Assembly (NCBI GenBank): GCA_964467225.1
Contig: CAYXPQ010000001.1
Coordinates: 75,803 to 139,802, forward strand
Direction: 5' to 3'
From: an uncultured Candidatus Saccharibacteria bacterium
GTDB lineage: Bacteria; Patescibacteriota; Minisyncoccia; Phycocordibacterales; PALSA-1337
Length of the DNA: 64,000 nt
The notes under the pieces were generated by a model. The model was not told the origin of the DNA. It saw only the letters and a program-made list of their open reading frames with translations, and ran no database searches. The position numbers and the translations under genes were made by a program. Positions 7,593 through 56,024 of this stretch are shown here, piece after piece; position 1 is the stretch's first letter, and each line of letters begins with the position of its first letter.

Positions 7593-8780
7593 ATGGCAGC
7601 AGAATTTAATCGTTCAAAGACCCATGTTAACGTAGGTACTATTGGCCACGTGGATCATGGAAAGACAACACTTACTACTTCAATTCTAGCAGTACAAGCA
7701 AAAGACGGTCTTGCTACACTCAAGGCTTATGCTGATATTGCAAAGGGAGGTACTGTTCGAGATGCAACAAAGGTGGTTACTATTTCTCTAGCTCACGTAG
7801 AATACGAGACAGCAAATAGACATTATGCTCATATCGATGCTCCAGGTCACGCTGATTACATAAAGAACATGATCACAGGTGCCGCTCAGATGGACGGTGC
7901 TATTCTTGTAGTATCTGCTCTTGATGGAGTTATGCCACAAACAAGAGAGCATATTCTTCTAGCTTATCAGGTTGGAGTGCCAAATATTGTTGTTTTCCTT
8001 AATAAATGCGACATGGTTGCTGAAGCTGATCTACTAGATCTAGTGGAAGAAGAGGTAAGAGATCTTCTTACAAAGAACCACTACGATGGTAAGAATGCTA
8101 CAGTTATCAGAGGTTCTGCTCTAAAAGCTCTTGAGGGTGATCCAGTATGGGTAGCCAAGATCAAGGATCTTATGAACGCTCTAGATACAGCAATCCCAAC
8201 ACCAGTACGCGAAACAGATAAGCCATTCCTTATGCCAATTGAAGACATCTTCTCAATCGAAGGTAGAGGAACAGTAGTAACAGGCCGTGTAGAAAGAGGA
8301 ACTCTAAATCTAAACGACGAAGTTGAAATAATTGGATTCAAGGATACTTCAAAGACTACAGTTACAGGTATTGAAATGTTCAATAAGTCTCTAAAGCAAG
8401 CTATTGCTGGAGATAATGCTGGACTTCTGCTAAGAGGAACAGGCAAGGATGATGTCACAAGAGGTATGGTTCTTGCAAAAACTGGCTCAGTAAAGCCACA
8501 TACAGATTTTGAAGCTGAGGTATACATCCTTAAGAAAGAAGAGGGAGGAAGACACACACCTTTCTTTACAGGATATAAGCCACAGTTCTACATCAGAACA
8601 ACAGATGTTACAGGAGAAGTAACACTAGCTCAGGGAGTTGAGATGGTTATGCCTGGAGATACAGTAACATTTAAGGTTAAGCTAGTAGCACCAGTAGCTC
8701 TTGAAGACAAAATGAGATTTGCTATTCGAGAGGGGGGTAAGACAGTAGGTGCAGGAGTTGTAACAAAGATTGTTGCATAA
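7593..8780 (+). CDS. tuf: elongation factor Tu
   Basis: 395 aa with [19 protein letters not shown] and NKCD GTPase motifs; full-length EF-Tu. Confidence 0.97.
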
Positions 8781-36488: not shown

Positions 36489-36575
36489 GGAGAGATGGGT
36501 GAGTGGTTTAAACCAGCGGTTTACTAAACCGCCGTTCTTTAATTAGAACCGCGAGTTCGAATCTCGCTCTCTCCG
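36489..36575 (+). tRNA. type II tRNA-Ser-like gene with apparent anticodon ACU (unusual)
   Basis: Acceptor GGAGAGA/TCTCTCC, anticodon arm GCGGT-TTACTAA-ACCGC, long variable arm gttct-ttaat-agaac, T-arm GCGAG-TTCGAAT-CTCGC and discriminator G. Confidence 0.65.
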
Positions 36576-36577
36576 CA

Positions 36578-36706
36578 ATGATAAGCAAGGACGGCTAAAT
36601 GCCGTCCGAGCTTAGCATCATTGCGTGAGAAGAGCAGATGAGAAAGCCGGAGCGCGACGGCGCGAGGCAGGGTCGTAGGCTGAGCCAGCAGGCGAAGACC
36701 TATGAC
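36578..36706 (+). other. 129-nt GC-rich structured insert downstream of the second tRNA-Ser-like gene
   Basis: Hairpins caatgataagc..gcttagcatcattg and ggacggc-taaat-gccgtcc. It ends ...tgaCCGAAT, like element 1. Confidence 0.5.
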
Positions 36707-36726
36707 CGAATCTCGCTCTCTCCGCA
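36707..36726 (+). repeat. exact 20-nt direct repeat of the tRNA 3' end (T-loop to CA)
   Basis: cgaatctcgctctctccgca is identical to 36558..36577. Confidence 0.7.
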
Positions 36727-36732
36727 AATTAT

Positions 36733-55918: not shown

Positions 55919-55992
55919 GCGGTCGTAGCTCAATTGGTTAGAGCACTCCCCTGTCACGGGAGAGGCCGCGGGTTCGAGTCCCGTCGACCGCG
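55919..55992 (+). tRNA. tRNA-Asp (anticodon GUC)
   Basis: Acceptor GCGGTCG/CGACCGC, anticodon arm CTCCC-CTGTCAC-GGGAG and discriminator G. Confidence 0.85.
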
Positions 55993-56024
55993 CATTCGTA
56001 AAATAAATAAGTTATAATACAAAT

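Follow-up and report, generated by a model that had tools for sequence, protein, structure and literature searches.

A putative serine tRNA with anticodon ACU, conserved in Patescibacteria and in uncultivated phages

The stretch of DNA analysed here (the window, 64 kb) contains a gene for a type II tRNA-Ser with the anticodon ACU, and genes of the same kind are conserved under selection in well over a hundred species of Patescibacteria and in many uncultivated phages. This is a natural, conserved exception to the textbook rule that excludes anticodons starting with A from split codon boxes. The gene probably encodes a functional, serine-charged tRNA that decodes AGU, and possibly AGC, with an A34 that is not deaminated. 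The ANN anticodons of split boxes, Ile's excepted, have been called "universally missing", including in the Ser-Arg box, and phages are said to lack the same "prohibited" tRNA genes (PMC8007984). The usual argument for this exclusion is the poor discrimination reported for unmodified A34 (PMC6103715). ACU has been called 'non-native', and engineered orthogonal ACU tRNAs decode AGU efficiently in E. coli extracts; unlike the tRNA described here, these are synthetic, and AGA and AGG were removed from their templates for fear of misreading (PMC6158751). A natural bacterial or phage tRNA-Ser(ACU) was not described in the mostly open-access literature that we searched, nor is it mentioned in a 2026 survey that covers the tRNA genes of 95 complete genomes of Patescibacteria.

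The gene and its parts are located as follows.
36489..36575 (+): tRNA-Ser(ACU) gene, type II, ending at discriminator G73 (ARAGORN; Rfam RF00005; family covariation)
36489-95 / 36568-74 (+): acceptor stem GGAGAGA/UCUCUCC, perfect 7 bp (sequence)
36516-20 / 36528-32 (+): anticodon stem GCGGU/ACCGC, 5 bp (sequence)
36521..36527 (+): anticodon loop UUACUAA, positions 32-38 (sequence; flanked by the covarying 5-bp stem 36516-20/36528-32)
36523-36525 (+): anticodon ACU, within this loop (sequence)
36534..36549 (about; +): long variable arm GUUCU-UUAAUU-AGAAC, the type II / Ser hallmark (fold; 5/5 pairs doubly changed across the family)
36551-67 (+): T arm GCGAG-UUCGAAU-CUCGC (sequence)
36575 (+): discriminator G (sequence)

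The original prediction of a type II tRNA with loop TTACTAA and anticodon ACU was borne out in each of these analyses. ARAGORN calls a tRNA-Ser with anticodon ACT at 36489-36576(+), and the Rfam tRNA model, whose gathering score is 29, matches 36489-36575 with 56.9 bits. The single-sequence fold is the cloverleaf (-34.1 kcal/mol, z = -3.6), and none of 200 shuffled sequences folded as well. All helices are perfect, U33 and a purine at position 37 are present, and the T arm carries UUCRAAU, as expected of a bacterial elongator tRNA. G73 is followed by CA, and CCA is not encoded. A better fold with a standard anticodon had been named as grounds for rejecting the ACU reading; as covariation across the family (below) fixes the register of the cloverleaf, there is no such fold. 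The anticodon lies outside the known Ser set (NGA or GCU) and is complementary to the Ser codon AGU. The gene thus encodes an ordinary tRNA-Ser in every tested respect save an anticodon that was believed not to exist. Around the gene, a 10-nt direct repeat (AATGATAAGC, at 36468-36477 and 36577-36586) brackets the tRNA and an 11-nt leader. In its upstream copy, the repeat overlaps a candidate extended -10 (TGATAAGCT). Its downstream copy is the 5' arm of a hairpin that precedes the element E2 described below, so the leader could pair with the 3' arm of this hairpin.

To survey the spread of such genes, we searched 185,579 species, each represented by one genome, for a generic pattern in which ACU was required by design: the D-loop GAGNGGT, the loop YTACTAR and, after a long gap, the T-loop. 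This gave at least 120 matches, where by a rough estimate about 12-25 are expected by chance. ARAGORN calls a tRNA-Ser(ACT) in 119 of the 120 genome loci listed, with 110 distinct sequences. Nearly all of the listed loci come from metagenome-assembled genomes (MAGs) of Patescibacteria (labelled Paceibacteria, Nomurabacteria, Magasanikbacteria, Taylorbacteria and 'Saccharibacteria'), and about ten belong to other phyla or are unassigned. The combined sample holds 281 distinct ACU sequences among the matches listed. The original prediction held that A34 is essentially absent from bacterial tRNAs other than tRNA-Arg(ACG); this agrees with the published record (PMC8007984) and is contradicted by the sequences gathered here.

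An alignment of 53 non-redundant ACU sequences supports the cloverleaf, with 99.5% of cells paired and double (compensatory) changes at 17 of 25 pairs, distributed over all five helices. The covariation score in these 53 sequences is 0.616, compared with 0.185 for shuffled alignments (0/500 reached it) and at most 0.116 for slid registers. The anticodon was tested separately in a metagenome scan with the commonest backbone of the ACU lineage, in which the three anticodon bases were left free (GAGTGGTTTAAATCAACGGTTTNNNAAACCGTCG). All 120 matches listed carry ACT; among them are 107 different extended sequences and 79 different tRNAs. These results show that the anticodon ACU is itself under selection, and that the gene is intact, old, widespread and selected on both structure and anticodon.

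A second serine tRNA gene, for which the original prediction had proposed a check, lies upstream in the window.
34917-35005 (+): tRNA-Ser(GCU), the canonical AGY decoder, loop UUGCUAA (ARAGORN, at 34917-35006; Rfam)

ARAGORN and Rfam agree on its identity as Ser(GCU). It is no close paralogue: neither its acceptor (GGAACCG) nor its anticodon stem (CCUCU) is common to the ACU gene. The two tRNAs share the type II cloverleaf with a long variable arm, G73, the pairs G1-C72, G2-C71 and A3-U70, a loop of the form U-U-N-C-U-A-A and the AGY half-box, and they are often genomic neighbours. A GCU gene is present inside the same locus (up to 8 kb) in 68 of 119 ACU genome loci, and 73 GCU genes lie within 120 metagenome ACU loci, in both cases among the matches listed. 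In many bacterial loci the ACU tRNA thus adds to the tRNA set instead of replacing the GCU tRNA. The two differ at position 34 (A, not G) and in the anticodon stem, where, among the matches listed, ACU tRNAs have G30:C40 (180/180 bacterial, 97/102 viral) and GCU tRNAs have C30:G40 (120/120). Across the 119 listed genome loci, mean identity is 0.77 among ACU tRNAs and 0.59 between an ACU tRNA and the GCU tRNA of the same locus. The nearest neighbour of each ACU tRNA is another ACU tRNA (119/119), which rules out a recent duplicate or G>A mutant of the upstream GCU gene. The ACU tRNAs form an old, distinct isoacceptor lineage and are not variants of that gene. The proposed G-to-A variant that restricts AGY decoding accordingly stands in part: this is an A34 serine tRNA for AGY codons, from a separate lineage with 59% identity to the GCU tRNA of the same locus.

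It is very improbable that the gene is a pseudogene, or a recent mutant of tRNA-Ser(GCU), that was possibly damaged by an adjacent insertion. ACU is a single transition away from GCU, and a repeat-flanked element abuts the gene. Against this reading stand the number and compensatory changes of the distinct ACU sequences listed, the invariant anticodon in the free scan, and the differences in acceptor and anticodon stem from the GCU gene of the window. The tRNA is complete despite the element, which is also found after normal GCU, GGA and CGA genes. The earlier suggestion of a decaying pseudo-tRNA associated with element insertions fails on the same evidence.

Viral contigs also carry this tRNA. 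The same generic pattern matched at least 120 contigs in IMG/VR, where viral status is the collection's label, and all 120 listed loci contain a tRNA-Ser(ACT). Many of these genes sit in tRNA arrays, often near-complete, together with Ser(UGA) and Arg(UCU); locus L126 is such a near-complete array, with 27 tRNAs and about one per box. In the listed viral loci, the remaining NNY two-codon boxes are served by G34 tRNAs (Asn 45, Asp 21, Tyr 16, Cys 11, Ile 9, His 5, Phe 2), with a single Asp(AUC) as the sole exception. Ser(GCU) is also present in only one of the 29 viral arrays with at least eight tRNAs among the matches listed, which suggests that ACU replaces GCU in many phage tRNA arrays. Diversity is greater among the viral ACU tRNAs (mean identity 63%) than among the bacterial ones (81%), and the closest relatives of the viral ACU tRNAs within the sample, among the matches listed, are always other ACU tRNAs. 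The few matches in MAGs of Planctomycetota, Verrucomicrobiota and similar phyla are often most like the viral ACU tRNAs. Among deposited named phage genomes, BLAST relatives turned out to be UGA, GCU or CGA tRNAs and no ACU was found; three abundant viral ACU types, used as queries in near-exact searches, gave no match among deposited phages.

SerRS recognises its tRNA by the long variable arm, the acceptor stem and G73, not by the anticodon. Of the NNY half-boxes, only that of Ser is known to have a synthetase that does not read the anticodon. The anticodon-independent Ser identity features are all present in the ACU tRNAs: in the alignment, G1-C72 and A3-U70 are invariant (53/53), and G2-C71 and G73 each occur in 52 of 53 sequences. 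Within the sample, the nearest relatives of the ACU tRNAs are all Ser tRNAs. Because these features are present, charging by SerRS is most likely. As SerRS ignores the anticodon, serine decoding with ACU would be possible, and a change from G34 to A34 would cost a Ser tRNA none of its identity. This anticodon-blindness is likely the reason why Ser is the split box in which ACU evolved.

This genome uses the AGN box in the standard way. Arg is most often encoded by AGA in the window (496 in 50 ORFs), which also specifies invariant arginines, in the FtsH motif RPGRFDRR (arginine finger) and in a RecG motif. AGU is the codon for the conserved Ser in the FtsH motif GPxRKS, as aligned to Thermotoga and Thermus structures. 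Reassignment of AGA to Ser is ruled out by the AGA codons at the invariant Arg positions of FtsH and RecG.

These codons also bear on the fate of A34. Almost all known A34 tRNAs become I34 (PMC6103715, PMC8007984), and deamination of the ACU tRNA by TadA or a relative would give ICU, which would read AGU, AGC and, weakly, AGA. In support of this, the loop UUACUAA departs from the extended TadA motif YUACGAA at position 36 only, and Arg(ACG) is also found in some ACU-bearing phage arrays, which implies TadA-positive hosts. We nonetheless consider inosine unlikely. TadA sites require UACG or UAMG, and G36 is always present (PMC11472039); the loop UUACUAA has U36 and thus lacks the core U33-A34-C/A35-G36. 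Known I34 tRNAs serve boxes in which U, C and A specify the same amino acid, whereas here AGU is Ser and AGA is Arg. ICU would thus insert Ser at the most used Arg codon, including at invariant catalytic arginines, and would be harmful. The Arg tRNAs that lie beside ACU in Patescibacteria loci and read CGN are GCG, not ACG (two cases, L034 and L067), a pattern that has been associated with lack of tadA (PMC8007984). Within the 64-kb window, we found no ORF with the tadA signature HAE...PCxxC. The I34 tRNAs Arg(ACG) and Leu(AAG, read as IAG) resemble the ACU tRNA in that A34 is encoded in the gene and, for Arg(ACG), in a loop that starts with Y-U-A-C. They differ in having G36 and codon sets in which I34 changes no amino acid, whereas ACU has U36 in a split box, where inosine would misread the Arg codon AGA. 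The earlier proposal that the tRNA needs modification of A34 thus survives in part, as a modification other than inosine may apply.

Under the preferred reading, A34 probably stays undeaminated, so that the Arg codons AGA and AGG of the same box would not be read. AGU would most likely be read through a Watson-Crick A34:U pair. AGC may be read as well, as A34:C reading has been published (PMC6103715) and phage arrays without GCU carry this tRNA. The closest precedents are Mycoplasma tRNA-Thr(AGU) and yeast mitochondrial tRNA-Arg(ACG), which share a probable undeaminated A34 and a reduced, AT-rich genome (PMC6103715). Unlike the ACU tRNA, which must discriminate against AGR, these serve four-fold boxes, where poor discrimination is harmless. 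A bolder version, which we advance tentatively and to which we give somewhat less than even weight, is that an A34 tRNA, unmodified or newly modified, routinely serves to decode a split box in Patescibacteria and in a wide range of uncultivated phages. In phages ACU would then be the sole AGY decoder, an unrecognised fidelity mechanism would keep ACU off AGA, and the rule of 'prohibited ANN' anticodons would be overturned. This mechanism could possibly involve the lineage-specific G30:C40 pair or a modification of position 34 of a new type.

The benefit of a second AGY tRNA is not obvious from codon usage. We saw no special enrichment of AGU as a reason for the gene (AGU/AGC is 4.1, within the 3.7-6.5 of most pairs). 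EF-Tu (7593-8780, +), the most highly expressed gene, shuns the half-box of the ACU and GCU tRNAs: it has no AGU or AGC codon, while AGY makes up about 27% of the Ser codons in the window. This codon usage would fit a tRNA with a mainly non-translational role, as a Ser donor to a different pathway or in escape from a nuclease or toxin specific for the anticodon loop, with the anticodon kept for recognition. Charging would persist in such a tRNA, since SerRS ignores the anticodon, and phages often carry the gene. Some phage tRNAs may serve to escape host defences directed at tRNA. We think such a role improbable: in near-complete phage arrays, which have one tRNA per box and lack GCU, ACU takes precisely the AGY place, and conservation extends to the complete elongator cloverleaf with its T arm.

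An ACU tRNA that is naturally conserved across hundreds of genomes provides a direct test case for the wobble-A discrimination argument. It raises the questions of how misreading of AGA and AGG is avoided, whether A34 is modified and why the Ser split box is involved. It also bears on the pipelines that annotate genomes of Patescibacteria and phages and on models of their codon adaptation, on phage-host inference from tRNA content, and on synthetic reassignment of AGU, which already uses ACU anticodons.

Both serine tRNA genes of the window are followed by a structured element.
35010-35044 (+): hairpin preceding E1 (fold)
35038..35144 (+): E1, structured tRNA-linked element after tRNA-Ser(GCU) (model R1, 98.3 bits; fold z = -6.1)
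36578..36618 (+): GC-rich hairpin between tRNA-Ser(ACU) and E2 (fold; relatives have a terminator-like hairpin at the same position)
36623..36727 (+): E2, structured tRNA-linked element (class A) after tRNA-Ser(ACU) (model R1, 96.1 bits; fold z = -7.4; family covariation)
36707..36727 (+): direct repeat that copies 21 nt of the tRNA 3' end (36558-36578) exactly, CGAAUCUCGCUCUCUCCGCAA (sequence; tail-repeat screen)
L077 2441-2545; L001 6207-6312; L356 ~330-470: example relatives of the element in other loci

E1 and E2 have a GC content of about 62%. Each ends in a copy of the T-loop 3' half, the T-stem 3' strand, the acceptor 3' strand and G-CA. In E1 this is a 20-nt repeat (35124-35143) with two mismatches to the GCU tRNA of the window, and it matches the CGUCUCC acceptor of the GCU tRNAs of relatives. 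As the strands of the E1 helix still pair while differing from the window's own GCU acceptor, the helix itself is maintained. In the closing helix of E2, a degenerate acceptor-5'/T-stem-5' strand pairs with the exact copy of the tRNA 3' end. The 5' part of the element in relatives repeats the acceptor 5' strand in 24 of 42 cases and the T-stem 5' strand with AUUCGAA in 33 of 42, and these two repeats are often about a 20-nt hairpin apart. With tRNA strands repeated at both ends, the element forms a mimic of the acceptor and T-stem that encloses a structured insert.

The element occurs in at least three core classes. Strong covariation, including strand-specific G·U pairs, is found at 26 of 39 pairs in class B (12 sequences) and at 16 of 23 in the class that holds E1 and E2. 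In the window, E1 and E2 are the only matches to a covariance model, which detects 37 copies of at least 35 bits in 200 bacterial loci among the matches listed. In 29 of the 37, the copy lies 40-144 nt 3' of a Ser tRNA (13 GCU, 13 ACU, 2 GGA and 1 CGA); two follow tRNA-Ile(UAU), and the others are tandem copies, lie behind tRNA-like genes without a call or, once, occupy a tRNA D-loop. In this last case (L247 9294-9414, -), the D-loop that contains the class A core belongs to an incomplete copy of tRNA-Ser(GCU), its 5' part, which lies 32 nt upstream of the intact gene, so the core can occupy a different tRNA loop. Strict Ser specificity is rejected by the copies after tRNA-Ile(UAU) and after a tRNA-like gene that ARAGORN did not call, and the apparent Ser preference may partly reflect the choice of loci, which were Ser-enriched by design. 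No element follows the 633 viral tRNAs, and no Rfam family matches the elements at gathering or permissive thresholds. The elements appear to represent a previously undescribed structured-RNA-like family 3' of Patescibacteria tRNA genes. A GC-rich stretch after the tmRNA terminator (28260-28390, -; candidate copy at 28284-28370) was considered as a third copy in the window, as it contains a motif, AGAAAGACGGA...GAGUCGGG, that resembles the core of E1 and E2. It was rejected at 8.2 bits (E = 2.9; fold z -0.6) and has no tRNA-end repeat; it may be a decayed copy or a chance similarity.

Like the att-site duplications that integrative elements make at tRNA genes, both elements carry a direct repeat of the tRNA 3' end. 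The presence of the element varies among relatives with near-identical tRNAs. Unlike integrative elements, they have no integrase or other coding capacity: the insert (105-150 nt) contains no ORF and no mobility gene. Synteny among relatives is too weakly conserved for an empty-site comparison, and none was identified. The formation of an acceptor/T-stem mimic from the 5' and 3' ends is shared with the tRNA-like domain of tmRNA and probably with two other tRNA-like RNAs, the Y-RNA-like tRNA mimic YrlA and mascRNA. E1 and E2 differ from these RNAs and from integrative elements in lacking an anticodon and a D arm and in having a large insert at the T-loop. The element may be a non-autonomous insertion with tRNA scaffolds as its target, a tRNA mimic that lacks an anticodon and is processed by tRNA enzymes, or a decoy. 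It leaves the tRNA undamaged and has no bearing on the authenticity of the tRNA.

The window, a chromosome segment with 35% GC, is of Patescibacteria type, with a ribosomal operon, EF-Tu, SecA, LigA, FtsH, RecG, type IV pilus genes and tmRNA, and ARAGORN finds eight RNA genes in it. Several of its tRNA genes are followed by G/A-CA in place of an encoded CCA (for example at 35005-35007, 36575-36577 and 55990-55993) and others encode CCA; the tRNA-end copies in E1 and E2 carry the same GCA tail. A tRNA-Ile(UAU) is located at 31877-31951 (+), and its codon AUA is very frequent (564 codons). This anticodon is listed as generally lost in prokaryotes (PMC8007984). Among the matches listed, tRNA-Ile(UAU) is also present in 7 genome and 13 metagenome ACU loci, near the Ser tRNA pair. 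One Patescibacteria metagenome locus contains a match to the Rfam LOOT RNA (76.8 bits, L316 6221-6344, +), which is unrelated to the tRNA or the element.
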